A DNA stretch of 64,000 nucleotides from Candidatus Bathyarchaeota archaeon (GTDB taxonomy: Archaea; Thermoproteota; Bathyarchaeia; TCS64): the NCBI GenBank assembly GCA_963769425.1, contig CAVYLP010000002.1:64001-128000 (forward strand), in the 5' to 3' direction. The notes beneath the pieces were generated by a model, which saw nothing but the letters and a program-made list of their open reading frames with translations, did no database searches and was not told where the DNA came from. Shown here piece by piece: positions 31,194-63,557 of the stretch; position 1 is the first letter of the stretch; every line of letters starts with the position of its first letter. Made by a program: the position numbers and the translations under genes.

Positions 31194-31950
31194 CCTGGCT
31201 CACTCCGTGACATCGTTAACATGCGGAAATCAACCCATGTTTCGCTCTAATCCATGGAAAATTAGTTAATTCCCGGAAGATCGAATCCCGTACGAGATAT
31301 CTGGATACCTTGGATTCTCTATCGGTCCTCAGTGAGTTGCCAATTACCACGAGGATTCGGAGGGTGTTATAGTTTCTCTTGGGTCGTTGGTCCTCCGAGA
31401 ACAAGTGTATATGCTTAGCGCAAATTGTCGTTAACGCTCTTTTCACCTCATTTGGAGGATTAGACGAGCTTGATTTAGCTGTAGAACGGCTCCTTGAAGC
31501 ATTTTCTTCTCCCAGTCATTGTCTTCAATGGCTCTACTCTAGGTAGGAGAATGAGATCGCTTAGTTGGATTTTTATCAGATTAAACTTTCCGTTTAATCC
31601 TCCTGAATTGGCTTTTCTTTCATGAATTTAAAAAGGTTTATGGATTACAAAAACAATTTCTGGTGAATGTTAAGTGGTATCCTGCGTTGGTTTAATTAGT
31701 GCATTGTGGACCAAGTAAATGTAATTATAGAGTCGTGTTAATTTTGATCATCTAATATAGAGTTGAACGGTGGAGGGAAGGATTGATTACTGTAATGTTG
31801 GTGGGCCGGGCCGTGTTCATCCCAAAATTGGGGTGAATACCTCCAAATGCGCGCGATAAAAAGTGGAAATAAAACTAGGGAATCGAACTTACAAATGTAA
31901 TCCAGTGAGTCGCAATCAGTATTTTTTAATTCAGTAATATTAATCACTTA

Positions 31951-31973
31951 GCGGACCCGGTGGGATTTGAACC
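31951..31973 (-). other. Second tRNA 3'-end fragment (possibly Arg-type), att remnant
   Basis: Minus strand GGTTCAAATCCCACCGGGTCCGC: T-loop, stem, acceptor strand, G discriminator; no 5' half. Confidence 0.72.
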
Positions 31974-32238
31974 TATATGGGTTCAGGTTCTGATTAATAG
32001 GTTAACAAACAAATGTTAAAAAATACTCAATATCCGAAAGCGTAATTTATTGTGTGCGAGGGGTGAGGCACCAACCAGTATTTACTAATAAAATGGATCG
32101 GTTCCTTAGTCCTTTTAATCCCTTGAATACTGGATGCTTAAGAACGTTATTTACCTCTATGATAAAAGGGAAAGATGATAATGGTTGCAAATTATTATAA
32201 AACTAGATAAGGTTTCATTCGGTTATACAAGGCAGAAA

Positions 32239-32634
32239 ATGAAGTTGACGTACACTAACGAGCCTCTTAGCACCAAAATGCGAACCGCGATAGCCTTACA
32301 GGAGATTTTCCTCGTAGCAATAATCCTCGCCTTCATAATCACATTAACAACTGGAACGGCTGAGATGCGGCTTATCAGCTTGGCTTTAATCACACCCATC
32401 ATAATTCTCAGCTTAGCATTCATCTACTACTGTAGAAAGAGGAAAGTTTTGGGCTATGCTGGGGCTTCAATCTTGGGTGCTGTAGGCGTTGTTTTGCGGG
32501 TGATTGTTAGCACTCAACCAGGCCTTGAGGTTGGTGGTGGGCTTCCAATTGTTGTAACTGTCCTCTACATCGTGTTGGGCGCTCTTGTTGCGGAGAAGAG
32601 CTACGAATCCCTGTTGGAATTACGTAACATGTAA
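32239..32634 (+). CDS. Four-TM membrane protein
   Basis: Four hydrophobic segments. Confidence 0.7.
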   Translation: MKLTYTNEPLSTKMRTAIALQEIFLVAIILAFIITLTTGTAEMRLISLALITPIIILSLAFIYYCRKRKVLGYAGASILGAVGVVLRVIVSTQPGLEVGGGLPIVVTVLYIVLGALVAEKSYESLLELRNM

Positions 32635-32754
32635 AATACGTAAAAGAAAACGGTGCTATTTCAAGCCTTAAATTAAATGATTGGATGTGCTTTTGCTGAA
32701 ACAAGGTTGCTATCCGCGCGCACAGATAGATACCCACAAACCTTTTTACGACGC

Positions 32755-33216
32755 TTATTTTAATTCGTAAGATTTGTAGGGCTCTGAAACCGCTTTTAGG
32801 TCTTCATAACTCAGCAACTTTGCAGAGTCGGGAAATATATTTATGATGGCTCTGTTCTCAGCTTTTTCCCCAGCAGGGAACCAAAAATAGTCGCTCATAT
32901 CGGGATGAAGATACAAGTACCAGAAATACCACTTCTCCTCTACTTCGTTCTTATCCCCAAACTTTGCGTGACCCTCTAATTCAAAATATTTTCCGCTATC
33001 TTTAAAGTGGGGAAAGAAAACACGAACCCGCGGATTATTCTCTATGTCACGTACTTTCCTTGTGTTTCTATAGGTAGGAAACCACATCATTGAACTCGGA
33101 TTAGTATTCACATTCGTCATTGGACGACTATGCCTTTCATCATCAGGGCCAAATGTAACCAGAAAAACTATCTTTGAAGCTTTAAAGCTCTCCTCTAGTC
33201 CCTCTATTCCTTCCAT
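32755..33216 (-). CDS. Pyridoxamine 5'-phosphate oxidase-like FMN-binding protein
   Basis: FLVT...HSRPM...RKVRDIENNPRV. Confidence 0.85.
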   Translation of the reverse strand: MEGIEGLEESFKASKIVFLVTFGPDDERHSRPMTNVNTNPSSMMWFPTYRNTRKVRDIENNPRVRVFFPHFKDSGKYFELEGHAKFGDKNEVEEKWYFWYLYLHPDMSDYFWFPAGEKAENRAIINIFPDSAKLLSYEDLKAVSEPYKSYELK

Positions 33217-33510
33217 ATTGACAATCCTTTATTATGGAGCTTTTGCAATCTTATATAACCTCATGTTTTTGTTAAAATAAGTTTGTAGAGCATGATCTTG
33301 GAAAAGTCCTTAATAATGCACGCGTGATCAAGGCACCTGCATCGACGTTCAAGTCTCGTCCCTTGATGTTGTGCACGCGCGTATACATAATTATCAATAA
33401 TCCATCATTATTGTCTTATGAGTGAATGTAAAAAAAAATAAAAGAGAATAATGGAAGAATAATTATACATTCGCGCGCATTTTGAATAATTAAAATAAGA
33501 AGGTTTATTA

Positions 33511-33939
33511 TTACTTTACAACAAGCACATTACAATTAGACTCGTTAAGTACTTTAGAAGTAACGGAGCCTAATAACCTCTGTTTCAACTTACCTTCACT
33601 CGCAGCGCCGATAACAATTAGATCACATTTTCTTTTTGTCGCCTGTTCAACAATGGAAAATGCCACGTCAGAACTTCGTTCTGAGATTATTGTGAGTTTG
33701 ATCTTGTTTCCAAACTTACTGGTTATACTAGGGGACAGGGATTTCATCAGAAGATCTTCGTCTCTTGGATCCTTATGGCCTATCACTAGATTGACATCTG
33801 CTGATTCGCCCCAATAAACGTGGAGCACTATCAATTCAGAAGAATATTTTATTGCAACAGACGCAGCTTCGTTTAATGCCTTTTGGGACTGGTCAGAGCC
33901 ATCGAAAGCCACTAATATTTTTGAATAATCCATCCTCAA
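33511..33939 (-). CDS. Universal stress protein
   Basis: ILVAFDGS, DLIVIG, LLGSVT. Confidence 0.92.
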   Translation of the reverse strand: MRMDYSKILVAFDGSDQSQKALNEAASVAIKYSSELIVLHVYWGESADVNLVIGHKDPRDEDLLMKSLSPSITSKFGNKIKLTIISERSSDVAFSIVEQATKRKCDLIVIGAASEGKLKQRLLGSVTSKVLNESNCNVLVVK

Positions 33940-35653: not shown

Positions 35654-36871
35654 TTACACTTCCTCACCCAATTCCTCCAAGTCTAGACCCTCCTTTTCAG
35701 CCTCTGAACTCACTCGGATTGGCAGGAAAATATTAATGACCTTTAAAAGTAAAAAGGTACCAACAAATGCATATGCAGAAACAATTAATACACCAAAAAT
35801 TTGAGAAATAAATAAAGAGGTCTGACCATAAACTAATCCATTGGCGCCATCAGCATTCACAGCAAGGGTGGCAAATATTCCAGTTGCCAGGGCACCCCAC
35901 ATTCCACCCACTCCATGACATGCAAAGACATCTAAGGAATCATCGATTTTTGTTCTACTCGCACGCCAACTTGATACTAGGTTTGATAAAACACCAGCAA
36001 CTAGGCCGATCACTATAGACGCCCAAGGCATCACATACCCTGAACCAGGAGTTATGGCGACCAAACCACACACTCCACCAACAGCCATCCCAACAGCGGA
36101 AGGCTTACCCTTACTTATCCAATCAACTACCATCCAGCTCACTGCAGCAGCAGCAGCGGCAAGATTTGTGTTGACCATAGCGTATACAGCTAAACCATTC
36201 GCTGCCAGTGAGCTGCCAGCATTGAAACCAAACCAACCGAACCATAGAATTGCTGAGCCGAGAATCACATATGGAATATTACTTGGCTTGAAATCCTTCT
36301 TCTCCTCAAGATCTTGCCTTCGCCCAATAACAATCGCAGCTGCAAGTGCAGATACACCAGCAGCGACGTGGACCACAAGCCCACCAGCAAAATCTAAGGC
36401 GCCAAGAGCCTTGAGCCAACCCGCATCATTCCAAACCCAATGTGCGATTGGCGAGTAAATCAAAGTCGACCATAAGACGATAAATACTATGAGGGATCGG
36501 AATCTGATTCTTTCGACAAATGCCCCAATAATAAGGGCGGGGGTTATGGCTGCAAATTTTAACTGGAATGCAAAGTGTAAAAGTTCAGGTATAGTAGGTC
36601 CATAAAGAGGACTAGGATCAACTCCAATGTTGTTCAGTAAAGCGTTTGATAAATTGCCTATAAATCCGCTAATGCTTGGCCCAAAGACTAAACTATACCC
36701 CCATAGAGCCCAAGTTAAACTGACAAATGCAAAAATGATCATGCATTGAATTACTGTGGATATTATGTTCTTCTTCCTCACCAACCCGCCATAAAAGAAA
36801 CCGAGGCCGGGCGTCATGAACATAACAAGTGCCGTCGCCGTCAAGACCCATGCTACATCTGCCTCATTCAT
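35654..36871 (-). CDS. amt: Ammonium transporter
   Basis: PGLGFFYGG, DFAGG.VVH, WFGWFGFNAGS, DDSLDVFACHG. Confidence 0.96.
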   Translation of the reverse strand: MNEADVAWVLTATALVMFMTPGLGFFYGGLVRKKNIISTVIQCMIIFAFVSLTWALWGYSLVFGPSISGFIGNLSNALLNNIGVDPSPLYGPTIPELLHFAFQLKFAAITPALIIGAFVERIRFRSLIVFIVLWSTLIYSPIAHWVWNDAGWLKALGALDFAGGLVVHVAAGVSALAAAIVIGRRQDLEEKKDFKPSNIPYVILGSAILWFGWFGFNAGSSLAANGLAVYAMVNTNLAAAAAAVSWMVVDWISKGKPSAVGMAVGGVCGLVAITPGSGYVMPWASIVIGLVAGVLSNLVSSWRASRTKIDDSLDVFACHGVGGMWGALATGIFATLAVNADGANGLVYGQTSLFISQIFGVLIVSAYAFVGTFLLLKVINIFLPIRVSSEAEKEGLDLEELGEEV

Positions 36872-36953
36872 TTCATCAAACCACCGTTGCACTTCTTGCC
36901 GCTAATTCCGCGTGCACACATCTATTTGACCTCATTTTTCCCCAAAATATAAA

Positions 36954-37886
36954 TTAGTACTTTCTTACACCACTAAACTTGGCGCCAATTAATATCATTC
37001 TAGTATCATCAACTATGTTATTGATCGTTTTTCTGAGGTCCTCCGAATAATTCCCAAGTAATCTAACTAATACACCATCTCCTTTAGGAAGTAGTGTAGC
37101 TCCTCCAACAACATTTGATTTTTCCTTCAATCTCATATTCAATTTATCGAGAACCTCTTTTGCTTTAATCTTAGAAGTAATAATATAGACACTGGCAAAA
37201 ACACTATTATCATCTAATAATCCAAGATGATTTAATTCATTCTTCTTAGGTTCCAATAAATAGACATCATTAAACCTCAAGTTCCCGTTTTGGTCTCTTG
37301 CCTGTGTTTTCAAATAGCAAATATCGTATTCGAAGCTCTCACCGCTAGCGACCCTACCAGGAACAATGATCTCGGAGTAAACAAGATTACCCCCTTCTCG
37401 TACAGTTATATCAGATAGTTGATAAAAACGAGAGTTTCTATAAGGGATAATTTGATCGGGAATATACTCAAGATAGCAACCATTATCGACATTTATCTTA
37501 ACAATCTGAGTCGCATAGTTCTTATCCATTTTATAAATTCGGGTGGCTCCCTGTGTGGTAATGTGAACCTTTGCTTCCTTACTTAAATTGAGTTCAATTT
37601 TGTATCTATCGCCTTGAAGCATACCCCCCGAAGGGCTCATTATGTATACATATGCCATCTCAGGCAATGTCTCTTCGAGGTATAACGCCTTCATGGAGAA
37701 CAATGGCACCTTGCTGAACTGTTCTCTGATCACGGTTCTGCTAGTCAATTGTTCTTTCTCAAAATTCAGAGTTAAAGCGCCAAGTTTTCCTGATCTACCT
37801 GGCTTGAGCTGAACTAACTCAGCCTCATAGGATAATATCTCAGGCGGAATTTCTGAAGGTGTATAATCTTCAAGGCTCAAGCTCAT
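36954..37886 (-). CDS. ureD: Urease accessory protein UreD
   Basis: SGGMLQGD, TTQGATRIY, PGRVASGE; position in ure operon. Confidence 0.92.
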   Translation of the reverse strand: MSLSLEDYTPSEIPPEILSYEAELVQLKPGRSGKLGALTLNFEKEQLTSRTVIREQFSKVPLFSMKALYLEETLPEMAYVYIMSPSGGMLQGDRYKIELNLSKEAKVHITTQGATRIYKMDKNYATQIVKINVDNGCYLEYIPDQIIPYRNSRFYQLSDITVREGGNLVYSEIIVPGRVASGESFEYDICYLKTQARDQNGNLRFNDVYLLEPKKNELNHLGLLDDNSVFASVYIITSKIKAKEVLDKLNMRLKEKSNVVGGATLLPKGDGVLVRLLGNYSEDLRKTINNIVDDTRMILIGAKFSGVRKY

Positions 37887-38555
37887 TCAACCTCTAACAA
37901 GTGGCACCTTTGGTGGGACGTCAAACAGAACATCGTGCTGCAGATGATCTGCAACTTCTTGTATCCCTTGTCCAGTCTTACAGTTCACAAAGAGGAAGGG
38001 CTTAGTGCCTCTAATGATCTTGGCATCTCGCTCCATGACGGAGAGATCAGCGCCAACGTATGGTGCCAAATCAATTTTATTTATGAGCAGCAAATCACAG
38101 TTCTCAATTCCCATCCCCCTCTTCCGTGGATACTTGTCACCGCCAGCTACATCTATGATGTAGATGAAGTAATCTGCCAAAGCTGGACTAAAAGTAGTGG
38201 TGATGTTGTCTCCGCCACTCTCAATTAATATCAAATCCAGTTCCGGGTGATGCTCCTCCATCTCCTCAACTAGGGAGAGATTCATTGAAGGGTCCTCACG
38301 GATAGCTGTATGAGGACAACCGCCAACAGCCAGACCGATTATGAGGTCATCGGGTATAATGTTTCGCTCCTTGAAGAGATTCTTTCGGATCCTCTCAGCA
38401 TCTTCCTTCGAGACCACATCGTTGGAGATTATTCCCAACTGGTAGCCTTTTCTCGTCAGGAATGGGACCACCTGTTCGATCAGAGCCGTTTTACCGGAGC
38501 CGACAGGGCCTCCTATTCCGACCCTGGGTACATGTTTCAATTCAGACATTTTCAA
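37887..38555 (-). CDS. ureG: Urease accessory GTPase UreG
   Basis: GGPVGSGKT, GCPHTAIRED, ESGGDN, NKIDLA. Confidence 0.96.
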   Translation of the reverse strand: MKMSELKHVPRVGIGGPVGSGKTALIEQVVPFLTRKGYQLGIISNDVVSKEDAERIRKNLFKERNIIPDDLIIGLAVGGCPHTAIREDPSMNLSLVEEMEEHHPELDLILIESGGDNITTTFSPALADYFIYIIDVAGGDKYPRKRGMGIENCDLLLINKIDLAPYVGADLSVMERDAKIIRGTKPFLFVNCKTGQGIQEVADHLQHDVLFDVPPKVPLVRG

Positions 38556-38564
38556 ATTCCTTTC

Positions 38565-39266
38565 CTAAGTGATGAACATCCTATTGTTTGATGTCTCATG
38601 CCATATTTGGTTGAGATCAATCTCTGGGGCGAATTGCCTCATCCAGGTTGCAGGCCGGTCAATGTTGTCAGCTATAACCTTCAACATGACTGGCTTGAGT
38701 TCGTCAATAATTTTCTGACCAGCTACGTGGTCAATCATACCCAGCCTAAGAGCCGCCCCTACGACGCTAACAATAAACGAGTAAACGAGAATTAGTGCCG
38801 CTTTTTCTCGGGATACATCAAACGCCACCAAGATAACAGCTAATGAAACTGGGTATATCCCTGTGGCTGATCCAGTTTTTATTGCCTTTAAATAATCGTT
38901 AATTAGAGAATTATCTCTAAATCCATGAATACATTTTAACATCTGACCCCCTGACCGAATAGAAGCGTCTCTGACCTCCGCAACTAGTTTCATAGTAGAT
39001 AACTGATCATCGATCAATAGTAACGAGTTGAGGTCACCCTCCTTTGCAGCGTGATAAGCATTACCAAGCGCGACGCAGTCAGCGGGTCCGATTTGATTAA
39101 TTAGGTAGACCTCGAGTAGAGCCTTCAGCTCCTTCCCTGTTTTTACTTTACCTGCGTAGAAAAAGTTCTCGAGGCCACTTGAAGTAGAATACATGCCGGT
39201 GGGGAAGAAGGAATCCCCTAACTGTAGAAACGTAATATCGCTTTCATCCAATTTAGGTATGGACAT
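38565..39266 (-). CDS. ureF: Urease accessory protein UreF
   Basis: DSFFPTG..S.GLE, C-terminal HE....RMF. Confidence 0.93.
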   Translation of the reverse strand: MSIPKLDESDITFLQLGDSFFPTGMYSTSSGLENFFYAGKVKTGKELKALLEVYLINQIGPADCVALGNAYHAAKEGDLNSLLLIDDQLSTMKLVAEVRDASIRSGGQMLKCIHGFRDNSLINDYLKAIKTGSATGIYPVSLAVILVAFDVSREKAALILVYSFIVSVVGAALRLGMIDHVAGQKIIDELKPVMLKVIADNIDRPATWMRQFAPEIDLNQIWHETSNNRMFIT

Positions 39267-39771
39267 GATTTGCTACTCCTTCATCGGGCTCAAAGACCAT
39301 CTTAGTTTTGGAAATTGTCAGGTGATGGCTTACCTTACCAAGTAATTTTTCGAGAAGTTCTAGCTCAGTATCTGCTTGGATTGGTACATAGATATTATCA
39401 CCCTCAACTTTGATGGGCCTGTGAAGGTTACCTAAGGCATGACCTAATCTAACCGATGTCTCGAAAAAGTGATGACCTTTCGCCTCGTCCTCGACTTTAA
39501 TAACCGCCACAGATTCGGGCTCGATTTCGATCTCAAATAGCTTGCCATCTTCCGCCTCAAGAACGTCTCCCCGCTTCAAGGGCTTCTCAAATTCTAACTT
39601 GATGGCAACCTCTTTTCCTTGTTCGGTGGTTTTCATCATTCGGGATCTCTGAGCCTCAAATCTACTCATAACCACAGTATCTAAAATGCCGGCATCTTTT
39701 AACTCAGAGCATTTAGTTTTTAGGTTTTGATCTGTGTATTTGTTTCCAACATATTTATTTATATTTATCAT
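39253..39771 (-). CDS. ureE: Urease nickel chaperone UreE
   Basis: L..GDVL, GHALGNLH; position in operon. Confidence 0.88.
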   Translation of the reverse strand: MININKYVGNKYTDQNLKTKCSELKDAGILDTVVMSRFEAQRSRMMKTTEQGKEVAIKLEFEKPLKRGDVLEAEDGKLFEIEIEPESVAVIKVEDEAKGHHFFETSVRLGHALGNLHRPIKVEGDNIYVPIQADTELELLEKLLGKVSHHLTISKTKMVFEPDEGVANHVHT

Positions 39772-40097
39772 CAGTGATCATCACTCTCTTTTTCTTTATG
39801 CATGTTATCAATAGCTGATTTCATATCTTCCAGCCTCTGCATGTAATCTACTTTTCCCAAGTGACTATAAGATGATTGTTTTACTTTAGCCATTACAAGC
39901 CCTTGAGGATCCTGGAGAATCCTTCCCCCGCTCTCCAACTTTTCAGAGATAACACAAAGAGTCACACGATGATCGGGGAAATCGAGGTTCAAGTGAGTTT
40001 TAGGATCTATGAAACCGGAGATGGTATCTATGAAACCAGCAGTGATAGTCACATGTTTGATTTTTGTCGCGTCAATGACCTGTCGACGTTGATCCAA
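39771..40097 (-). CDS. Hypothetical protein within urease operon
   Basis: 108-aa ORF translationally coupled to ureE. Confidence 0.7.
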   Translation of the reverse strand: MDQRRQVIDATKIKHVTITAGFIDTISGFIDPKTHLNLDFPDHRVTLCVISEKLESGGRILQDPQGLVMAKVKQSSYSHLGKVDYMQRLEDMKSAIDNMHKEKESDDH

Positions 40098-40135
40098 GTT
40101 CTCTTCTTCGACACAGTGTCGTATTAACAGGTTTT

Positions 40136-41692
40136 CTACCTCCTTGTTTCGGACAATGACTGAATGTTGAGTTCTTCTGCTGCTAGATTACGATCTATTC
40201 TAAGGACTGCTTTAGTGATCTCACCCGCAGCTTCAAGTGCGGTGGTCTTGACAAGTAGTGGATCGATTATTCCTCGTTGCCACATATCAACTGGGACACC
40301 GGTTTCTATGTCGATCCCGTATCCCTCCGGAGATGATTTTGCCTCCATGACCTTCTCCAGCCCGTTAAATCCGGCGTTGGTGAGAATTTGACGCATTATA
40401 CTCTCTAATGCAGCCACGACAACGTCCAAACCTACGCTTTCGATCCCTCTTAGTTGAATATTCTTAACCTTAGAAATGAGGTGTAGTTCAGCTGCACCGC
40501 CACCGGCGACAACGCCCTTATTCAATGCCGCCTCGGCTGCATTCACGCCATCCCTGGCGGCTCTCCAGCGCTCCAGTGAGGTTTCCTTCGTTGTCCCGGA
40601 AACGATCATTGTAACAATGTTACTTCCTGAACCACTTTCTATGAAAATCAGCCCTTTTTCCTCGTCCTCGTAAATGTGTTCTGCCTTACCCAAAATATTA
40701 GGTAGGGCCAGATCATCCAACATCCTTACAGGCTTTGCCTCGGTGTATCTTGAAAGAGGCTCTACTTCATCCGTCGAAATATGCATCGCCATGATATTTT
40801 TTGATATGAGAAGATTTTCAATGTACTGATCTACCTCAGGAGAATCGATGAGCACGACATTGGCACCTGTAGCTGATATGCTATCAACAATATTTTTACA
40901 TTTAATAGCACGATCATTTTCCATGCTCATAATATCTCCATATTGTTTACTCTCCTTAATCCAAGCCTCTTTTATCGGTTTTAAGTCGAGTTTTGAAATT
41001 AATATTTTTGCACCTTTTACTTCTAGTGGCATCTCTGGATCCATTCTTTTTCGCTCTAGAACAACACCGTTGAATAATGAGTCATTCATGTTGGTCTTTC
41101 TAATCACCATTATTGACTTGTTGAAATCGTACTCATTATTGATCTTAGCCCTATCTCCAACCAACCTTATTGTCTCAATAACAATTGGAGCCAGTTTTCC
41201 ACCGTCAAGTTTTGAAGCGAGTGATGTTCTTACGATGGATTCAAGTTCAGGTGAATCCATGGAGATCTTTTTTGCCTCGGCCTCTAAAAGTTGACAGACA
41301 CTCTTTACCCCACTTTCCACGCCATCCACAACTTTTGATGGGTGTACACCAAGCTCCTTGATGAGATTTTTCCCGACCTTCACCATCTCTGCAGCCATAA
41401 CCACAGCCGTTGTGGTTCCGTCTCCAACCAATTCCTCCTGGCGTTCAGCTATCTCGACAATCATTCTAGCGACAGGGTGAATGGTCTTTAATGACAGAAG
41501 AATGGTGACGCCGTCGTTAGTGACGTGCCGATTCATCGACTGATCAATTAGCAGTTTATCGAGGCCCTTAGGACCAAGAGTCGTCCTGACTGTTTCAGCA
41601 ACCGCTATAACGGCGTTACAATTTGATTCTAAAGCGTTAACCTCAATGTTCTGAGCTACAGGTCTCCATACACCTTGACTTGACATATCCAT
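40136..41692 (-). CDS. Divergent group II chaperonin (thermosome-like) subunit
   Basis: TTLGPKGLDK, TNDGVTIL, GDGTTT, GGGAAE, GIIDP. Confidence 0.92.
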   Translation of the reverse strand: MDMSSQGVWRPVAQNIEVNALESNCNAVIAVAETVRTTLGPKGLDKLLIDQSMNRHVTNDGVTILLSLKTIHPVARMIVEIAERQEELVGDGTTTAVVMAAEMVKVGKNLIKELGVHPSKVVDGVESGVKSVCQLLEAEAKKISMDSPELESIVRTSLASKLDGGKLAPIVIETIRLVGDRAKINNEYDFNKSIMVIRKTNMNDSLFNGVVLERKRMDPEMPLEVKGAKILISKLDLKPIKEAWIKESKQYGDIMSMENDRAIKCKNIVDSISATGANVVLIDSPEVDQYIENLLISKNIMAMHISTDEVEPLSRYTEAKPVRMLDDLALPNILGKAEHIYEDEEKGLIFIESGSGSNIVTMIVSGTTKETSLERWRAARDGVNAAEAALNKGVVAGGGAAELHLISKVKNIQLRGIESVGLDVVVAALESIMRQILTNAGFNGLEKVMEAKSSPEGYGIDIETGVPVDMWQRGIIDPLLVKTTALEAAGEITKAVLRIDRNLAAEELNIQSLSETRR

Positions 41693-41742
41693 CTCTCCAA
41701 GTGTTGTCTGTTCTTGTATTTTAAAAAATAAAATTGGGGAAA

Positions 41743-43469
41743 TTACGCCATGAAGTATCGCTGGGCCAATGCTAACTCGGTAGCCGGCTCGACGGTGGCT
41801 ATCTCTCCATCCAGCCTAACTTCATAGGTCTCGGGGTCAATGGTTATCTTAGGCGTCTTGTCGTTCCACATCATGTCCTTCTTGCTGATGTTTCTGCAGT
41901 TCTTTACGGGTAGCATAGTCTTCTCTAGTCCGAGCTTTTCCGGTACACCGAGATCGATTGCCGCCTTCGATGTGAATGTGAAGCTTGTCTTCTTCACCGC
42001 GCGGCCCATTGCACCGAACATCGGTCGATAGTACACCGGCTCCGGAGTGGGTATCGACGCATTGGGGTCACCCATAATGCCCCAGGAGATGAAGCCTCCC
42101 TTGAAAACCATCTTTGGCTTCACGGCGAAGAAGGCGTCCTGGTACATTACAATGTCCGCGTACTTGCCGGGTTCCAGTGAACCAAGGTAGTCCGCGACTC
42201 CGTTGGTAATTGCGGGGTTGATTGTGGTCTTTGCGATGTACCTCATGGCCCTGAAGTTGTCGTTGTCGCCAGTTTCCTCTGGGAGCGGTCCGGTCATCTT
42301 CTTCATCTTATCGGCCGTCTGCCAGCATCTGATCACGACCTCACCGATCCTGCCCATGGCTTGGCTGTCGGAGGAGTACATGCTCAAGACGCCCTTGTCA
42401 TGCAGGACATCCTCTGCTGCGATTGTCTCAGCCCTTATTCTAGACTCGGCGAAGGCAACGTCCTCAGGAACAGCTGGGTTGAGGTGGTGACAGAACATCA
42501 GCATGTCCAGGTGCTCGTCGATTGTATTCACTGTATATGGTCTTGTCGGGTTGGTTGAAGAGGGCAGAGCATTCATTTCTCCAGCGATCTTCATAATGTC
42601 TGGTGCGTGTCCGCCTCCAGCTCCTTCAGTGTGGTATGTGTGGATCGTTCTTCCATCTATCGCTGCGATTGAGTCATCAACGTAGCCACACTCATTGATC
42701 GAGTCTGTGTGGATCGACACCTGGGTATCGGTCAGATCAGCTGCCCTTAGAGAGGCGTCGATGATTGCTGGAGTCGTACCCCAGTCCTCGTGGTCCTTCA
42801 GGCCACAGGCACCTGCTTCGATCTGCTCCATCTGAGTCGCCAACGAAGGGTGCGAGTCGTTTCCCTTACCTAGGAAACCCCAGTTCAGCGGTATGTCCTC
42901 GCGGCCTCCATCATCCTAGCGATGTTAAATGGGCCAGGGGTACATGTTGTAGCGTTAGTACCATCCGCGGGACCAGTGCCACCTCCAATCATGTTACAGA
43001 TGCCGTTGCTGATTGCATCAACGTACTGCTGAGGACTGATCATGTGTACGTGGGTGTCAAAGTGACCAGGTGTGCATATGGTGTGCTCACCCGCGGTGAC
43101 CTCTGTGCAAGCCGAGACAACCATGTCAGGATCTACACCATCCATCGTATTCGGGTTGCCAGCCTTACCGATCCCCGCGATCTTACCATCCTTGATCCCA
43201 ATGTCGGCCTTGACAATCCCCAGTACGGGGTCAATTATCACCGCGTTAGTGATGAGGAAATCTAGAGCACCATTCGCACTCGTGATTCCGGGGGTTTGTC
43301 CCAAACCATCTCTAACCGTCTTGCCTCCACCGAAGACCTCTTCGTCTCCAGGTGTGAGATAGTCACGCTCGACCTGTACGAATAAATCCGTGTCGGCGAG
43401 GCGTATCTTATCGCCCTTTGTCGGTCCGTAGAGGTCGGTGTATTGCTTCCGGGATAATTTAAGTACCAT
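41743..43469 (-). CDS. ureC: Urease alpha subunit (1-nt frameshift near 42900)
   Basis: [41 protein letters not shown]; adding one G restores [17 protein letters not shown]. Confidence 0.95.
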
Positions 43470-43476
43470 TTTTCAT

Positions 43477-43887: not shown

Positions 43888-43899
43888 TTTTCATTTCAC

Positions 43900-47036: not shown

Positions 47037-47063
47037 GTACGCGCAGCGCGCTACGCAAATCCG

Positions 47064-55849: not shown

Positions 55850-55944
55850 TAGTATTGTGTAAAATTTTCCAATAAATAATTAGTTCTGATCATATTCGCA
55901 TAGTTCTTTTAATATTATCTTTAACGTTTCATATTTGCGCGCGC

Positions 55945-56283
55945 TACCCTGTTCCTAAATAGAGTACCCAAACAAATCCACCAAACAAACCACACCACGA
56001 CATCCACACCTAAACCAAAAACCAACACAAACAAACCTTCCCAGGAAACAAAACAACCAAGCTCAGCCCCACAAACTAGATCAGAAGCAAACCATCACCT
56101 ACGAGCCCCACCCCCACCGTGAACACACGAGCCTCAAACGTTGAAGAACGTAGGAGATACTGCCTTCTCAGGCCGACCCAAACACTCAGCAGCCTCCCGA
56201 ACCAGCACGAAGCAGAGAAGACTCAGCAGAGCATACACAGAGACGATGTCCAGCCTCCTCACGTTGTTCACCCTCAACCCGCG
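55945..56283 (-). mobile_element. Remnant 3' end of a DDE-type IS (transposase C-terminus plus non-coding end)
   Basis: Minus strand RGLRVNNVRRLDIVSVYALLSLLCFVLVREAAECLGRPEKAVSPTFFNV* then a G/T-rich tail ending TATTTAGGAACAGGG; family not assigned. Confidence 0.55.
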
Positions 56284-56285
56284 CG

Positions 56286-56648
56286 CACGGCGTTACCCCT
56301 GCAAAGATGCCTGGAAAGACTCCCTACACCATGCGGACAGCTCAAGGGGTCTTTGAGAAGCCGACGAGTCCCTACGTCGATGAGGAAAAATGCACTAAAT
56401 GTGGGGCATGCGTTAATGTCTGCCCGGTCGGCGCAGTATCAATCGATCACGTTGTGGCAGGTCTGTCTCCCAGACTTTCATTGAGTACCAGAATGGTGAA
56501 TGTTGATCCATATTCCTGCATCTGGTGTACAGCGTGTATCAGGACCTGCCCAGTCAATGCATTCATCAGAAGACCTATGATGGTTATGGCAAATGGGAAT
56601 CTGAACAAGAATTTCCCCGATAGAAAGAAAAATGAAACATACCTGTAG
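56286..56648 (+). CDS. 2x[4Fe-4S] ferredoxin domain, probably 5'-truncated
   Basis: CTKCGACVNVCP and CIWCTACIRTCP; frame is open back to the CG run at 56280. Confidence 0.8.
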   Translation, partial: HGVTPAKMPGKTPYTMRTAQGVFEKPTSPYVDEEKCTKCGACVNVCPVGAVSIDHVVAGLSPRLSLSTRMVNVDPYSCIWCTACIRTCPVNAFIRRPMMVMANGNLNKNFPDRKKNETYL

Positions 56649-57655: not shown

Positions 57656-58049
57656 ATGCGCGTATGCGTAATGCGGGCTCACCTAGTCGCCTCCACTTGT
57701 TATGTGCGCGTGCGGTCCTCCAAGTTTTATAATGCCTTTATCACATCTCCCTCAAACCGCAACATAGAATCTTTCCAAACTTACCTAGATGCTTCATCAA
57801 GGTCCTTATTCATAATTAATCATCTCGAATGTCGTGTGGCCTCACAGCCTCACCCGTGCTCCGTCCACGTTTTTATGCGCCAATATCACCGCCCCATCAG
57901 ATGAGACTCAGGGTGAGCCAAAACACCAAGCCATAATACATCAGTACCTCTGAAGAAGAGGCAGTTGGGTGAAATTAGCCCTAAAGTCTTATCCCCCAAA
58001 CCAAACCAAAAGTTAAGCACAAAGAGTGAAGGAGAATAGTATTAAGAAG

Positions 58050-58343
58050 AAGGTGGTGATGGAGTCAGGCTACTGCTGGCAACACATATACGACCACCTC
58101 GAAGAGGCCGGATACGATGTCAGGCTCGCCCACCTACTCAAAGTGAAGGCAATAGCCGAGGCAAAGATCATGACAGACGAGATAGACTCGGAGACACTCG
58201 CCCACCTGCTGAGGGCCGACCTGCTACCGGAGTCCTACGTGCCGCCTAAGGAGATCCGGGATCTTCGGGAGCTGGTCAAGAGGAGGGCATTCCTCGTGGG
58301 GATGCGAACCAGGTTGAAGAACAAGGTACACGCCGAACTCGCC
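58050..58343 (+). pseudogene. IS110-family transposase N-terminal (DEDD) fragment
   Basis: VVMES..W, AKI.TD.IDS..LA.LLR, LRELVKRR..LV..RT..KN; cut at CG run. Confidence 0.88.
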
Positions 58344-58350
58344 GCGCGCG

Positions 58351-59045
58351 CATGTTGCACCCGCGTCCAAAAACCTCTCAATCTTCGAAATACAATCGTC
58401 AACCCCACCTGTGATAGTAATCTCCTCTACAAGATCACGTGGAGTCAGAGCACGGAACTCGTTGATCCTCTTTATCAAGTTGTATCAGTAACATCCATCC
58501 TCTGAATCGAGAGTTCTTGGGGATCTTTGAGCCCCGCCCTCTTTTCCAGTAACATTCGCTTAGCTATGAGTCATCCACGCGCATCGCCTTCCACACTCTT
58601 GTATGCTCTCTCCAGATCATTATCCACATCAGTGAAGCAGGTGACCACGACATCAAAAACATCCATTCTTCTACCAGACCTCCCAGCACCACACTCTATG
58701 TCTCTGATCTTTTCTCCTAGCTCGTTTGGGAGTTGGTCACCATCCCAATCCAGCCATCAGCAAGCTCTCCAGCGAGTTCCTTCGTCTTTTTCCCAATTGT
58801 GCCGACGTATACTGGAGGATGAGGCTTCTGAACGCATCCAATCTCATGTAGGCGTTTTTCAGAGTAAAGATCTCGCCAGAATAACTGGCAAGGTTAGAGG
58901 GTGACGCTTCCCAGAGCCTCTTTATAACCTCGATAGCCTCCCGGAGTCGGGTGAGAGGTCTCTTCAACTCGATTCCGTATGGAAGAGTGTTCATTATCTC
59001 CCCTGCAACTAGCCTGAGGGCGGCTCTACTATGTGTGAGCTGATC
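58351..59045 (-). pseudogene. LLM-class (F420/flavin) oxidoreductase remnant
   Basis: AGE.MNTLPYG...LREAIEVIKRLW...SGEIF; G.VDDCISKIERFLDAGAT; several indels and stops. Confidence 0.8.
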
Positions 59046-59168: not shown

Positions 59169-59353
59169 GGATAGCAGTGTCTAGTACGGGGAACAGCCTG
59201 GATAGCCAGGTTGACCCGCGGTTTGGAAGATGTCAGATTGTCTTGGTGGTAGACACCGAGACCCTAAAGGTGGAGGCTCTCAGCAACACCAGCATAGGGC
59301 AAATATATGAGTTAGAGACTCCATCAAATCATCTTCTGGCCAAAGATGTATAA
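59165..59353 (+). pseudogene. NifB/NifX-family protein, N-terminal half
   Basis: MRIAVSS.G..LDSQVDPRFGRC then loses family similarity. Confidence 0.8.
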
Positions 59354-59527
59354 AGATGTCTAGATTAGTGAAAAATGGAGGCTAAAGACATTAATCTATA
59401 AGTCTCACCCTAAACATTTTGAAACTATCTTGTGCAGAGCTAATATACGCGCGCGTCGCCGAGAGCCTGGGGCTTGATCTTGAGCAAGTTACAAAAGCCG
59501 CGGAGAAGTAAGGCATAGTGATAGGAA

Positions 59528-59926
59528 ATGAAAGGATATCACACTAACGTTGAGAAAGAGACCCTGAAAAACACCGACTATAGACGAGTCCTCTACACGG
59601 GAAAGCACAGTCAACTCGTTTTAATGAACCTTAAACCCGGGGAGGAAATTGGCGAAGAAGTACACAGCCACCTAGACCAGTTCTTCAGGTTCGAAGAAGG
59701 TGAGGGAAAGGTCACTATCGATGCAAACCAATACCCCGTCAAGGACGGTGACGCGGTAATAGTACCCGCGGGATCCAAGCATAACGTGATTAATACCTCA
59801 AAGACTAAACACCTGAAGCTCTACACCATCTACTCACCACCAGAACACCAGGACAAAGTCATACGCCACACCAAAGCAGACGCCGAGGCGAAACCCGAAG
59901 AATTCGATGGGAAGACAACAGAGTAA
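59528..59926 (+). CDS. Cupin-domain protein
   Basis: GEEIGEEVH..LDQFF, VPAGSKHNVIN, LYTIYSPPEH. Confidence 0.92.
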   Translation: MKGYHTNVEKETLKNTDYRRVLYTGKHSQLVLMNLKPGEEIGEEVHSHLDQFFRFEEGEGKVTIDANQYPVKDGDAVIVPAGSKHNVINTSKTKHLKLYTIYSPPEHQDKVIRHTKADAEAKPEEFDGKTTE

Positions 59927-60492: not shown

Positions 60493-60999
60493 CGTTAAAT
60501 AGTCTCATTTATAGTTACTTTTCATATCGAATAAATTATTCATGACGGTGGGCTAAGACGGGTGCGATGAACTCAAGAGCCTCTGGGAAAGCCCTGGGGA
60601 CCACGGTGAAGTGATCAGCATCCCCGTATTTCTTATGCATCGCCCTGAGGGAGCCATCCCTAACCCTGAGGCCTCAACCAGCTCACCGACGGCCTCAACA
60701 TTCTCAGCCCCAACCCCATCCACAGCGCGCGCACCTAAATACCGACGGGATGGCCCCCAAGATGTTCTCTTCAGGCGGCCAGTTAGAACTAGTATTGACT
60801 TCGGCTCAATGAGTAGTGGATCGGCGTCTACCAAATTCTGAAGGTTGATACAAACGGCTGGAGTGTCTTCTGCATGCCACAATAGTATCAGGTAGCGCTC
60901 AGGAAAAGGCAATGGAGCGACACACGACTCTAAAGCCTATGTGTGGTTTTTATTATCCGCCTCCCGCTTCCTACCCAACTACCTAGAATCGGTGAGTAA

Positions 61000-61440: not shown

Positions 61441-61769
61441 ACTAAGCGTTTAGGCGCAAGTTCTATTACGAGAATCACATGGGAGATATTCTCCGAATTG
61501 TAACTAGGGTGCATTAACTTCTCAGAAGCCTAACTCAATGGCGGTTGAGGAGGGCAAGTGTAATTAGCCAAGGATACGCCTCCCAACAATAGCTGGCTCT
61601 GCGCGCGTAACAAAATGGTGCCATTTCTTGATATTAAAATGAACTGGCTCTTGTTCAGGTGACATCCTTTCTTCTCTTCATTGCCACTTCCAAAATTTGC
61701 CCTGCCATTGCTGCTATTACGCGGACAGGGTTGCTAACCTTTTTAATCAAACAAGTTCACGAACCCCTC

Positions 61770-62048
61770 ATGTCGAAGGTCGAGATGCCTCAGGGAAAGA
61801 TGCTACAAGTAGGGCCCACCGGGAACGTGGTGATGGTAACATGCTGTGATCGGGATGGTCGAGCCAACATCATAACAGTCGGCATGTGTATGCCGATCAG
61901 CATCGACCCGCCTCAGGTATGCATTGGGATAGCTCCTGAGAGGTACAGCCACGACCTGATTCTTGAACAGGGCGAGTTTGTGGTTAATTCACCCAGTATA
62001 GCTCTCAAGGATAAGATGCATCTCTACGGGATCAAGTCGGGGAGGGAC
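61770..62048 (+). pseudogene. Flavin reductase family protein, 3'-truncated
   Basis: NIITVG...SIDPP..I.I...RYSHDLI...GEFVVN...G.KSGRD then CG run. Confidence 0.85.
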
Positions 62049-62295
62049 GCGCGCGCGATGACAATTTTCTCGTGATGCGGTAGAGCGACCTTACACAGTT
62101 TGATCTTGATCTAATTGGTTTACCCGTCTTCAGATCCTTCAAATCAATTTACAGAGTTTCTCCCTTCTCATCCATAAGACCTTTTCACATTATCTGAAAT
62201 AGACACATTGTATTAAAAACCCATTAACAGAAGCCATCGGACTCCAAAGTAATCTTTAAGGCAAATCATTCTCAACTACTTCTAAGGCGAAAGAG

Positions 62296-62775
62296 ATGGA
62301 TCCCATAGTCATAAACTGGTTAGGACCATACTCCCTTAACCAGACCACCCCTAAGGAGCTCAGGGGCAAGAAGGGACTATACGCGACTGCACACGGCTCG
62401 AATATTATTCTCATAGGCAAGGCGATGCATGGTAAGGGAATATTTCGAGAGGCTAAAGAGGGGAGGCTCTCCACGTATTGGGAGGGTCTGAGGAAGCTCA
62501 AAGTGGTGCCAGAGGAGAAGCCCTCCGGGTACAAACTCTTAGAGTATGTTTATGAGAACTGCTCCCTCTATGCCGGTGTGGCCAGAAGAGAGGACTTAAA
62601 TAACATCGAAGTCACAGAGCAGCTACTAGTCTATAGAGTTAAGCCTATCCGAAATGAGGAGTTCGTTAAATCCTACGAGGGCCCGCTTGGGCTTAGTGTG
62701 ATTAATAATGGGAATCCGCCGCCTGGCATCGAGCATATTATTCTCGCCCCTAGTTCTACTAAATCTGCAAAGTAG
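62296..62775 (+). CDS. Hypothetical protein, possible GIY-YIG-like fold
   Basis: GLYA...ILIGKA...EQLLV...P..N. Confidence 0.6.
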   Translation: MDPIVINWLGPYSLNQTTPKELRGKKGLYATAHGSNIILIGKAMHGKGIFREAKEGRLSTYWEGLRKLKVVPEEKPSGYKLLEYVYENCSLYAGVARREDLNNIEVTEQLLVYRVKPIRNEEFVKSYEGPLGLSVINNGNPPPGIEHIILAPSSTKSAK

Positions 62776-62853
62776 CAGACTTTTCTTACCTAAGTAACTA
62801 AGTCAAAAAATAGTTAAAAAACGAGGGTATTTTAAAGATAGGTTATTAAATAC

Positions 62854-62988
62854 TTAATGCTTCTTTACCTTCTCTTCTAGATTCTTTAATCTAGCTTCGA
62901 TATCATCAATTCTCTTCTTCTCTGATCCCTTAATCTTTTCCTCTAGTTCTTCTATCTTCTTCTTCATTTTCTCTATTTCCGCAGACAT
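62854..62988 (-). CDS. 44-aa coiled-coil microprotein (absent from ORF track)
   Basis: MSAEIEKMKKKIEELEEKIKGSEKKRIDDIEARLKNLEEKVKKH; GAGG and TTTATAAA upstream. Confidence 0.65.
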   Translation of the reverse strand: MSAEIEKMKKKIEELEEKIKGSEKKRIDDIEARLKNLEEKVKKH

Positions 62989-63189
62989 TGACTTTTCCTC
63001 ACAAATTAATATTTTTGATAATTTATAAACGTTCTCTAAAATATTAGGAGCCGGTGAATTGCTGGTTTTTAGCGCGCGCTTCTTGGAATAAGTTAGCTAA
63101 AAATATTTGAGTTCTTTAATCGTTCATTGATATTACTAGTAGTTAATAAAATTCGTTCAATAGAAATTATTTGTAGAGTGATTGTTAAG

Positions 63190-63537
63190 GGATAAGTCAC
63201 TTGGAATTGAAGAGCTAGAAAGATTCTCAGCAGACGTACTCGGATCCGAGGAACACGTTAGCCATGAATGCAGTAACCCAGAATGGTATTGCCGCAGTTG
63301 CTCTCTGCCGAAGCGAGGTAGATAGAAAAAACTTCACCTTTAGCGACCTCATTGACTTCCCCGATGCAACCAATCAGGAGAGGTCAGGTAGATGCTGGCT
63401 CTTCTCAGGGCTGAGCCTCCTCGCACAAAAGGCCATGAAAAAACTGAAGCTTACACCTTCGAGCTTCGAAATATATCATATGTTCTGGGACAATCTAGAG
63501 AAAGCCAACTACTTCCTGGAGAATGTAATCGAGACTG
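63190..63537 (+). pseudogene. pepC: Aminopeptidase C (C1B, bleomycin hydrolase) N-terminal fragment
   Basis: TNQERSGRCWLF, FWD.LEKANYFLE; cut at CG run. Confidence 0.85.
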
Positions 63538-63557
63538 CGCGCACATGCATCTTTATT

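Follow-up and report, generated by a model that had tools for sequence, protein, structure and literature searches.

Short alternating CG runs at junctions of unrelated DNA in a bathyarchaeon and its genus, with a possible origin in transposase cuts and end joining

The window analyzed here is a 64,000-nt stretch of the genome of a Candidatus Bathyarchaeota archaeon (G000), which is a soil archaeon. Its right half holds an intact amtB gene (35654-36892), a urease gene block, pieces of transposase, flavin-reductase and peptidase genes, and many short alternating C/G runs (Table 1). The original prediction listed 19 such runs and one more in ureC, and all of them were recovered at the positions predicted, with lengths of 6-10 nt; runs of at least 6 nt number 20 in 31801-64000 and 11 in 1-31800. 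Five additional sites described as weaker are also present, although as 4- or 5-mers only (CGCG at 36909, CGCGC at 46523 and 5-mers at 57103, 57658 and 59950). The runs had been placed in spacers or exactly where genes break. Gene breaks were found at five of the 20 runs (55937, 56280, 58343, 62048 and 63537) and the remainder lie in spacers, except for the run at 41998, which is in coding sequence of ureC; this gene had been taken as the sole intact one with a run inside, but it is represented by two ORFs in this assembly.

Table 1. Positions of alternating C/G runs and of the gene blocks and fragments associated with them in the window
Feature	Position	Strand	Remarks
Four spacer runs, low-GC boundary	31849 (7 nt), 32715 (7), 33376 (6), 33472 (7); span 31849-33478		AT-rich flanks; between small ORFs (PNPOx-like protein, Usp protein)
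Urease block: ureD/G/F/E, thermosome-like gene, ureC/B/A, urea transporter	36917-46267	-	Pfam; only run is the coding 6-mer at 41998
Tandem 12-nt duplication, TAATC+CGCGCGC twice	46697-46720 (runs 46702, 46714)		Sequence
Run 13 nt downstream of the stop of a 778-aa UPF0182-like gene (47064-49400, minus)	47046-47051		
Two 6-nt runs bracketing a 125-aa gene (50119-50496)	49973, 50587 (49973-50592)		Homology to relatives covers 50077-50566
8-nt run, spacer beside DUF1269 gene	52215-52222		
8-nt run adjoining outer end of IS5-family inverted repeat	55937-55944		Paralogue C3:327482 begins CGCGCGC at the same point
IS5-family end fragment, about 340 bp: inverted repeat and last 52 codons of transposase	55945-56280	-	77-81% identical to C3:327482-327823 and C3:52233-52413; transposase match 56137-56292, minus strand
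7-nt run truncating the IS5 fragment, 20 nt upstream of ferredoxin gene (56307-56648)	56280-56286		Both intact paralogues read through without a CG run
IS110-family transposase fragment, profile positions 50-150 of 155	58049-58343	+	Pfam; 89% identical to relative L004, intact beyond the break
9-nt run at IS110 fragment break	58343-58351		
8-nt run, 73 nt upstream of cupin gene (59528-59926)	59448-59455		
8-nt run inside a 119-aa ORF without family match; putative junction	60725-60732		
7-nt run, about 130 nt upstream of flavin-reductase fragment	61601-61607		In relative L005, run 20 nt upstream of the intact copy
Flavin-reductase fragment, profile positions 7-83 of 153	61731-62048	+	Pfam; 86% identical to L005, 77% to C3:348308
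10-nt run at flavin-reductase fragment break	62048-62057		
8-nt run, AT-rich spacer	63072-63079		
Peptidase_C1_2 N-terminal fragment, profile positions 25-118 of 438	63264-63546	+	Pfam match stops at run 63537-63542

The chance expectation had been estimated for about 40% GC, a value that proved too low, as the computed GC content of 31801-64000 is 0.447. The claimed excess stands: first-, second- and third-order Markov simulations of this region gave 4.1, 5.8 and 9.1 runs of at least 6 nt against the 20 observed (the highest counts in 200 simulations were 9, 14 and 18), and 0.18, 0.30 and 0.73 runs of at least 8 nt against the 7 observed. No run excess was found in the left half of the window, with 56.5% GC (11 observed, 14.8-16.6 simulated). 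In the low-GC spacers (179 kb), observed and expected numbers were 43 and 12.1 for 6 nt, 30 and 1.5 for 7 nt, 16 and 0.4 for 8 nt, 12 and 0.0 for 9 nt, and 4 and 0.0 for 10 nt, and no run exceeded 10 nt. The other five dinucleotide repeats occurred near expectation in these spacers, where CGCGCGC made up 114 of the 546 7-mers composed only of G and C. Of the runs of at least 7 nt, 30 of the 36 at local GC below 45% and 36 of the 55 at 45-52% GC fell outside ORFs (minimum 100 aa), non-ORF DNA being only 35 and 28% of the bases, respectively.

The runs had been regarded as belonging to one island. As a unit, the island was not sustained: the same excess of non-coding runs of at least 7 nt extends over the whole genome (70 observed, 6.3 expected) and to two congeners (24 against 2.0 and 19 against 1.1), with none in two outgroup genomes, and the tracts are scattered over the genome rather than gathered in one array. 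Tract density was highest in the congener G015 (2.5 Mb, 20 contigs, 92% complete), whose 24 tracts come from 400 kb.

Several runs lie exactly where homology ends, as predicted for junctions of unrelated segments. This is the case for the IS5 (56280), IS110 (58343) and flavin-reductase (62048) fragments and for the peptidase fragment (63537), whose boundary comes from Pfam coordinates only, with a precision of about 5 nt. The urease block is collinear with the relative locus L011 at 81% nucleotide identity up to 36917, where the amtB gene of L011 is truncated by CGCGCGC, whereas that of the window is intact. The flavin-reductase genes of L005 and C3:348308 continue intact past the break and have no CG run there; as intact homologues lack the run at the break, it is not derived from the broken gene. 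In the relative locus L002 and the JGI contigs L043 and L044, a 7-nt run is located 23 nt from the end of the UPF0182-like gene, with unrelated DNA beyond. In the variable regions of this archaeon and its genus, pieces of unrelated DNA do meet at short alternating CG runs.

It had also been stated that no IS end surrounds the runs. On the contrary, ends of an IS5-family element and of its MITE adjoin GCGCGC-type runs in most copies, in G000 and in at least nine related genomes; in the window, run 55937 is at such an end, and the low-GC stretch likewise terminates on its far side, at C2:133826, in an IS end. Full copies (C3:52076-53337 and C3:327489-328750) encode DUF772 and DDE_Tnp_1, the inverted repeats measure about 20 nt, and a non-autonomous derivative of about 620 bp, the MITE, is present in about 14 copies. 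A fuzzy search for the inverted repeat in G000 yielded 66 matches, 24 of them judged to be real ends; 17 of these adjoin an alternating run (4-8 nt) and 3 a decayed one, and 4 have no run beside them. In loci from nine relatives (ten genomes with G000), a GCGC-type run, mostly (GC)3, (GC)4 or (GC)5, stands directly outside the repeat in 23 of 27 matches; when both sets were pooled, the boundary between tract and inverted repeat was tight and fixed in 40 of 51 ends.

Four of the seven complete copies in G000 can be read as flanked by a 4-bp CGCG direct repeat; a direct repeat beyond the tracts was searched for and not found. A 100%-identical duplicated segment ends in AAT, GCGCGC and the IS in C3, and in AAT, GCGCGCGCGC and unrelated DNA in C6, the form that would be expected if both CGCG duplications were retained. 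Two MITE copies with a tract at either end stand in place of target DNA, 370 bp in one case and about 5 kb in the other. No known intact allele has CGCG at any of the breaks, including both sides of these two MITE-plus-deletion events; therefore, simple insertion with duplication does not suffice and a further step must be assumed. The IS5-like transposase occurs in 13 of 18 family genomes and in none of 12 outside the family. A higher IS load does not go with a higher tract density in the three genomes compared, and solo tracts are far more numerous than IS copies. In G015, searches for the IS5-like transposase, DDE_Tnp_1, TnpB, IS110 and DDE_Tnp_4 were all negative, and a single decayed IS end was seen in the 400 kb sampled.

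End joining that adds CG was one of the candidates proposed originally. The family does carry an operon for Ku, LigD primase-polymerase and ligase-phosphoesterase, rare among archaea and not found in the 12 outgroup genomes, which would lend substance to this candidate. Across the 31 genomes searched, Ku was present in G000 and in 15 of 18 family genomes, and in none of the 12 genomes of other families, a distribution shared by the IS5-like transposase. The operon of G015 is intact, in the order LigD Prim-Pol, Ku, ligase+PE and DUF72. G000 has the same end-joining genes, but Prim-Pol, Ku and ligase are each split or shortened, which could be due to assembly frameshifts or to decay.

We infer that transposase cuts at CGCG supplied the breaks and that end-joining repair made the tracts, such that the (CG)3-5 tracts may be the resulting joints; this is a plausible reading that we adopt tentatively. 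Members of the IS5 family use 4-bp palindromic targets, and LigD fills in overhangs. The IS5-family DDE transposon and its MITE would insert into CGCG or GCGCGC with duplication of 4 bp, CGCG, and each copy would consequently be flanked by (GC)3-5. Breaks left by excision or abortive cleavage would be repaired by the bacterial-type operon (Ku, LigD primase-polymerase and a ligase with 3'-phosphoesterase), and fill-in and religation of the self-complementary CG ends would restore or extend the tract. As the tract is palindromic, any two such ends could be joined in either orientation. One-sided resection would link a tract to arbitrary DNA, for instance a truncated gene, and as the tract would remain a landing pad, repeated visits could erode both flanks. 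Segments bounded by tracts would in this way be shuffled, lost or captured, giving rise to a low-GC mosaic.

It is conceivable, though doubtful, that Ku/LigD or a partner polymerase itself adds short, self-complementary (CG)n at joined ends, the tracts being filler of recent illegitimate joints, and that the IS5 element has evolved to use these plentiful intergenic tracts as a safe landing site. Such IS-independent addition would suit G015, which has many runs and an intact operon, and in which none of the transposases tested was detected. Tracts also appear at joints where neither flank's intact allele has CG: G016 has a 10-mer where G000 has a response-regulator gene without boundary tracts, and a 7-mer in place of the G000 SDR gene. 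In one in-frame exchange, 22 nt are replaced by 10 nt that include GCGCGC, and the MITEs that replace target DNA fit a deletion joint made first and a MITE arriving second. The confinement of Ku to the family points the same way, but this co-occurrence is confounded by phylogeny. An enzyme that places alternating CG at joints is not known to us, and no description of one was found in the literature searched. Moreover, 89 length differences between G000 and either G015 or G016 in collinear regions were unlinked to tracts, though old tracts would have decayed: a run was present in the short allele in 4 of 89, about background, and within 45 nt of a boundary in the long allele in 0 of 89. The fixed boundary at the IS ends would also be left to target choice alone.

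A CG-specific restriction or homing nuclease, cutting GCGC, CGCG or GCGCGC with a 5' overhang, could break the DNA, with fill-in adding 2-4 nt per cycle and fragments, including foreign DNA, being mis-joined. This predicts the same lengths (6, 8 and 10) and orientation-free joining as the transposase reading, fits G015 in that no IS is needed, and is in line with the end-joining genes and with the concentration of tracts in low-GC DNA that looks acquired. We nonetheless consider it unlikely: ORFs show no avoidance of GCGC and CGCG (observed/expected 0.83-0.95, against 0.47-0.70 for GGCC), GCGCGC is above the order-4 expectation there (538 against 395), a C5 cytosine methyltransferase was found neither in the 18 family genomes nor in G000, and 81 ORFs scanned around tract-rich regions included no nuclease or integrase candidate. 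More unlikely still is the growth of CG microsatellites by slippage from chance CGCG seeds, with breakage piling up at sequences prone to Z-DNA or hairpins. The smooth fall-off in length from 6 to 10 nt would suit it, as would CGCG 4-mers at chance level (347 against 323 expected), which are possible seeds. Z-DNA-forming CG repeats do cause breaks and deletions; depletion rather than enrichment is, however, expected of fragile sequences. Not even a CGCG seed is present in intact alleles where the breaks lie, the excess restricted to the genus (two outgroup genomes having none) would go unexplained, and eight tracts common to L002 and L043/L044 showed no length change in a comparison made by eye.

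Very improbable is that the tracts are selected functional spacers, protein-binding or supercoil-absorbing boundaries between transcription units, instead of scars. They are mostly intergenic, and a given gene cassette can have them on its flanks in more than one species despite unrelated DNA outside, but they also cut through genes, have decayed copies nearby, lie anywhere from 2 to 1141 nt from gene starts or stops without a fixed distance and are spread over the four spacer configurations (20, 14, 14 and 13 of 61); perfect runs of 8-10 nt are, besides, unattainable by point mutation in DNA of 39% GC. Assembly or library chimeras are hardly credible despite the 4.9% estimated contamination and probable frameshift errors of this MAG, because the same tracts are found in the same contexts in independent assemblies (MAG locus L002 and JGI metagenome contigs L043 and L044), the excess appears in three separate genomes of the genus, and tracts are conserved beside IS ends in ten genomes.

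The transposase and end-joining reading can be set against known systems. IS5-family elements have a DDE_Tnp_1 transposase and a short palindromic target with a small duplication, IS5 itself using YTAR (4 bp). The element described here resembles them and their MITEs in its DUF772 and DDE_Tnp_1 domains, its inverted repeats, its non-autonomous derivative and flanks that fit a 4-bp palindromic duplication. It differs in having 6-10 nt of alternating CG as its target or flank, in the large surplus of solo tracts over IS copies and their presence in a genome without detectable transposase, and in the deletions of target DNA that accompany both insertions with a comparable "empty" allele; the parts of the literature searched contained no description of a CGCG-targeting IS. 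Prokaryotic Ku/LigD end joining fills in 5' overhangs and leaves untemplated additions at joints; it is reportedly known from mycobacterial work, with Methanocella as an archaeal example. Here too, Ku, a LigD-type primase-polymerase, an ATP-dependent ligase and a 3'-phosphoesterase are encoded together and a few extra bases stand at joints of unrelated DNA, but these bases are always alternating CG, which to our knowledge is not a property of LigD, and the genes are split in G000.

Cut-and-paste transposons such as Tc1/mariner and hAT leave excision footprints through end joining, and we know of few descriptions of these in prokaryotes. As with these, the former site would keep a short palindromic remnant, and the 6-10 nt of the tracts would match the duplication in one copy or two, as would GCGCGCGCGC beside a segment whose twin bears the IS; here, footprints would mark simple sites and deletion or replacement joints alike. 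Integron cassette arrays share with this locus small, mostly single-gene units in either orientation, contexts that vary among relatives and a recurring short separator; unlike them, it has neither an attC-like imperfect palindrome nor a consensus beyond the tract, the 81 ORFs scanned include no integrase, each unit retains an upstream region of its own, and the tracts are dispersed genome-wide. REP/BIME-type intergenic repeats serve as IS landing sites in bacteria and are likewise abundant intergenic sequences targeted by a resident IS family, but the tracts measure 6-10 nt, have no stem-loop or flanking consensus and lie at breakpoints. Finally, Z-DNA-forming (CG)n are fragile sites, and Z-DNA across genomes is reportedly the subject of a 2025 survey. 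As in such sites, alternating CG is tied here to deletions and rearrangements; the tracts do not, however, reach the usual length of Z-DNA-forming repeats, and they show enrichment, not depletion.

All 19 alternating CG runs of 6-10 nt named in the original prediction, together with the run within ureC, were found in place, and the five weaker runs that it added are 4-5-mers. The window (C2:64001-128000), which belongs to a MAG of 2.55 Mb in 6 contigs (estimated completeness 91%, contamination 4.9%), is divided into a half with a GC content of 56.5% (1-31800), ending in a phage-type terminase, and a half with 44.7% (31801-64000). In the low-GC half, 20 runs of at least 6 nt were observed against 4.1, 5.8 and 9.1 in order-1, order-2 and order-3 Markov simulations, respectively, and 7 runs of at least 8 nt against 0.18-0.73; from these counts the enrichment claimed beforehand is real and far above chance. 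The high-GC half contains 11 runs against 14.8-16.6 simulated.

The genes of the window include a urease cluster with a thermosome-type chaperonin inside it, AmtB, a urea transporter and FmdE (see the table of features); the place of the chaperonin within the cluster is kept in eight related contigs. Together with TFIIE-alpha and aTrm56 from the DNA that follows, these genes are a sign of an archaeon, and the nearest public contigs bear the labels Bathyarchaeia, Nitrososphaera or Nitrosocaldus. The urease block (36917-46267) is collinear with L011, a locus of a relative, yet the adjoining DNA, tract-rich as it is, is unrelated between both genomes. The high-GC DNA to the left of the low-GC stretch, where the terminase ORF is located, may be a provirus. 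Where the low-GC region begins, 121 bp (31962-32082) are 88.5% identical to C6:46524-46645 on another contig of the genome; this segment is not a tRNA gene, and no tRNA genes were found in the window. The tract-rich stretch also holds a 44-bp inverted repeat pair with 86% identity (59296-59339 and 63567-63610), 4.2 kb apart. A plasmid collection searched with window positions 31000-55900 gave no match. At the far end of the proposed island, where the original prediction advised looking for an integrase or nuclease, the next 20 kb encode transporters, TFIIE (TFIIE-alpha), aTrm56 and a histidine kinase, and no integrase family was found among the 45 ORFs at 29-64 kb of the window or the 10 ORFs of those 20 kb. 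The low-GC stretch ends at C2:133826, on the contig of the window, where a tract accompanies an IS inverted repeat.

Features of the window and of one related locus (window positions unless stated otherwise)
Feature	Location	Strand	Remarks
MITE-family internal fragment, about 340 bp, without ends	28725-29067		High-GC part, just left of the terminase gene
Terminase_6N ORF, 498 aa	29274-30770	minus	Terminase_6N 4.6e-08 and weak Terminase_6C match
Group II chaperonin, 518 aa	40136-41692	minus	Cpn60_TCP1 1.1e-100
ureC, 2 ORFs	41743-42843 and 42885-43469	minus	Split gene
IS5-type fragment	55945-56280		Tract on either side
IS110 transposase fragment	end at 58343		Homology stops at tract
Flavin-reductase fragment	end at 62048		Homology stops at tract
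Peptidase C1 fragment	end at about 63546		Homology stops at tract
amtB	relative L011		Homology stops at tract

The runs had been proposed as a feature of the island, but the whole genome contains 771 runs of at least 6 nt that fall into two populations, and the excess in low-GC spacers extends across the genome. Where local GC is at least 52%, 9.7% of the 154 runs of at least 7 nt lie outside ORFs, against 7.3% of the bases. Outside ORFs of at least 100 aa lie 30 of the 36 runs of at least 7 nt where local GC is below 45% (non-ORF bases, 35%) and 36 of 55 where it is 45-52% (non-ORF bases, 28%). For the low-GC spacers (179 kb, 39% GC), observed and expected numbers are 43 and 12.1 at 6 nt, 30 and 1.5 at 7 nt, 16 and 0.4 at 8 nt, 12 and 0.0 at 9 nt, and 4 and 0.0 at 10 nt, with nothing longer than 10 nt, and CGCGCGC accounts for 114 of the 546 7-mers made of G and C only. 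The flanks of 245 runs revealed no positional consensus, those of 90 runs no direct repeats or palindromes outside the run, and 360 run flanks no shared 9-mers apart from those of a MITE, a ~620-bp non-autonomous derivative of a resident IS5-family element. A hairpin telomere or other palindromic site was discarded because the run flanks are without symmetry. The phase of the runs, G-start to C-start at about 2:1, fails to separate the models.

The tract excess characterizes the genus. For non-ORF runs at least 7 nt long, the counts observed over order-1 expected were 70/6.3 in the genome under study (G000), 24/2.0 and 19/1.1 in its congeners G015 and G016 (400 kb sampled from each), 1/0.2 in a sample of just 80 kb from another genus of the family (G018), and 0/0.6 and 0/0.1 in the outgroup genomes G030 (200 kb) and G028 (120 kb). 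In a JGI sample of 29 metagenome contigs with a UPF0182-like gene (182.6 kb in total), all nine such runs fall in three contigs, L043, L044 and L053; the first two are the nearest to the query among the JGI contigs (82-84% aa identity), and their tracts equal those of the MAG locus L002 in length and context.

We then consider the tracts as joints. As predicted, runs are found where genes break: when flanks were compared with intact homologues, the homology with paralogues or relatives ended at a tract in five cases, four fragments in the window and amtB of L011. The intact copies, where available, read through the break without a CG run, so the broken gene was not the source of the tract. The UPF0182 cassette has one tract right after its stop codon and a second upstream, in G000 and in the L002 lineage, and the DNA beyond these tracts is unrelated between the two. 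BLAST searches from 180 low-GC runs of G000 gave 372 non-self hits, of which 78, largely from one repeat family, stop at the run and 12 pass across it. In addition, two contigs of G000 share a recent segmental duplication (about 5 kb, C3:47-52 kb and C6:1003.7-1009 kb, with 95-100% identity) that stops in both copies exactly at a CG tract. A duplicated segment with 100% identity runs out as AAT-GCGCGC-IS in C3 and as AAT-GCGCGCGCGC-unrelated DNA in C6, and the latter form would be the remnant expected of an excision that retained both duplications.

The absence of IS ends around the runs, stated in the original prediction, was not borne out. An IS5-family element in the genome, about 1.27 kb long, encodes DUF772 and DDE_Tnp_1 (the 343-aa ORF of locus L019 matches them at 2.5e-09 and 1.6e-18, respectively, and the L020 copy is alike). 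Its 1.27-kb copies are bounded on either side by TGCCTTGTCCCTAAATTGA-type inverted repeats, as is the MITE, which has about 14 copies in G000 and is nearly confined to it. We read 24 of the 66 fuzzy repeat matches in G000 as real ends; an alternating run of 4-8 nt directly adjoins 17 of them, a decayed run three, and none the remaining four. Related inverted repeats are present in nine other genomes, and in the loci of relatives (G001, G002, G005, G006, G007, G009, G011, G012 and G016) a GCGC-type run lies immediately outside the repeat in 23 of 27 matches, the exceptions being one at a locus edge, one doubtful match and two with decayed runs. The flank runs mostly measure 6, 8 or 10 nt from a fixed inner boundary, and four of the seven complete G000 copies are compatible with a 4-bp CGCG direct repeat. 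This pattern fits a 4-bp CGCG duplication upon insertion into a tract; however, since the tract is palindromic, the repeat may equally belong to the element itself. Five MITE neighbourhoods (three searched in relatives), the 10-mer site of C6 and the flanks of 16 IS/MITE loci yielded no unoccupied site with matching flanks.

Some further features of mobile elements were seen in G000 and its relatives. As read from its sequence, a MITE copy of G016 (L075 1560-1930, contig C8 of that genome) seems to include a small open frame, which suggests that a passenger gene is present in some 'MITEs' of this family. An 817-bp insert in L024 (G000 C6:480.3 kb) and a 78-bp insert in L034 (G008) lie between direct repeats of ~12 bp (TTAGATTTTGCC-like), at a site that is unbroken in L035 of G002; the repeat looks like the target duplication of another mobile element.

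The informative comparisons between a filled site and another allele were all insertion plus deletion. In the two MITE copies for which the other allele is readable, the MITE and two tracts stand in place of target DNA: in one, of 370 bp from a small gene of which G008 has an intact copy, and in the other, of about 5 kb of G000 sequence together with the end of an amidohydrolase gene that it contains; the intact alleles have a CG run at neither boundary. In G016, two solo tracts occupy the places of whole G000 genes that lack boundary tracts, and an in-frame replacement of 22 nt by 10 nt contains GCGCGC. Together, these sites indicate that some tracts arose where neither partner supplied CG. 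A rule by which every joint gets a tract is countered by 89 length differences between species in collinear regions, with a run in the short allele in four and at the long-allele boundaries in none; a 540-bp cassette difference inspected by eye also lacks a tract at both boundaries. This lack of association has to be set against the decay that old tracts would have undergone; decayed copies can be seen close to perfect tracts.

Two agents specific to the lineage occur alongside the tracts, the IS5-family transposon and a bacterial-type end-joining operon. An IS5-like transposase was detected in 13 of the 18 family genomes and in none of 12 outside the family, and Ku in 15 of the 18 plus G000 and in none of 12 genomes that represent seven other families. 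The G015 operon has complete genes for the LigD primase-polymerase, Ku, ligase plus 3'-phosphoesterase and DUF72. All of LigD Prim-Pol, Ku and ligase are present in G000 (L194, C6:589001-602000), each split or shortened in comparison with G015; these and the split ureC suggest assembly frameshift errors or gene decay.

Our best single account, which we hold tentatively, is that cuts by the transposase at CGCG and the end joining of the resulting CG ends produce the tracts. Cutting at CGCG would leave self-complementary CG ends, which would be filled in and religated such that the tract is regenerated or lengthened; occasional mis-joining would then give orientation-free shuffling, deletions and truncated genes, and repeated visits to a tract would erode both flanks. 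The chief evidence against this account, and in favour of CG addition independent of the IS, is the set of joints without CG on either side beforehand and the genome G015, which has the densest tracts, placed between ordinary accessory genes, one decayed IS end alone in the 400 kb sampled, and no match to the IS5-like transposase, DDE_Tnp_1, TnpB, IS110 or DDE_Tnp_4. Under IS-independent addition, which we judge a possible but clearly less probable explanation, the Ku/LigD operon or another partner would add short alternating CG tracts while joining ends; the tracts would be universal self-complementary sticky ends for any pair in either orientation, a sequence-marked process of end joining and DNA capture would build the accessory genome, and the resident IS5-family element would exploit the tracts as landing sites. 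What is said here of IS5 targets, LigD fill-in and transposon footprints is background, as is the fragility of Z-DNA.

Another CG-specific nuclease seems improbable to us. The target of a restriction-modification system was rejected, as GCGC and CGCG are without avoidance in the ORFs of three congeners (observed/expected 0.83-0.95) and no C5 methyltransferase (PF00145) was found in the 18 family genomes or in G000. The most avoided 4-nt palindrome in the ORFs of G000, G015, G016 and G030 is GGCC (observed/expected 0.47-0.70), which may reflect a GGCC-specific restriction system. Slippage plus fragility is slightly more doubtful still: the eight tracts common to L002 and L043/L044, matched by order and context with no formal alignment, are equal in length, and AT, AC, GT, AG and CT repeats are about as expected in the low-GC spacers, by which a dinucleotide microsatellite was rejected. 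A selected spacer element appears very unlikely, and a promoter or terminator was dismissed because the 61 low-GC spacer runs occupy all configurations (20 convergent, 14 divergent and 27 tandem spacers) at no fixed distance from genes (2-1141 nt). An artefact is hardly credible, since the equal tracts of L002, L043 and L044 are not the product of one assembly.

If the tracts are scars of the transposon and end joining, they would be a base-by-base record of recent rearrangements in an uncultured soil archaeal genus, in which a bacterial-type Ku/LigD, rare in archaea, and a transposon with an unusual CG-tract target shape the accessory genome. If they are added independently of the transposon, they would represent a new kind of end joining bearing a sequence signature. 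Under either reading, the tracts are a practical marker by which recent joints and the boundaries of cassettes can be located in these genomes. The part of the literature available to us held no description of CG-tract joints or of a CGCG-targeting IS. With flanks that carry neither a consensus, nor palindromes, nor shared 9-mers other than those of the MITE, the tracts differ from the joints of integron arrays, in which attC sites lie between the cassettes.
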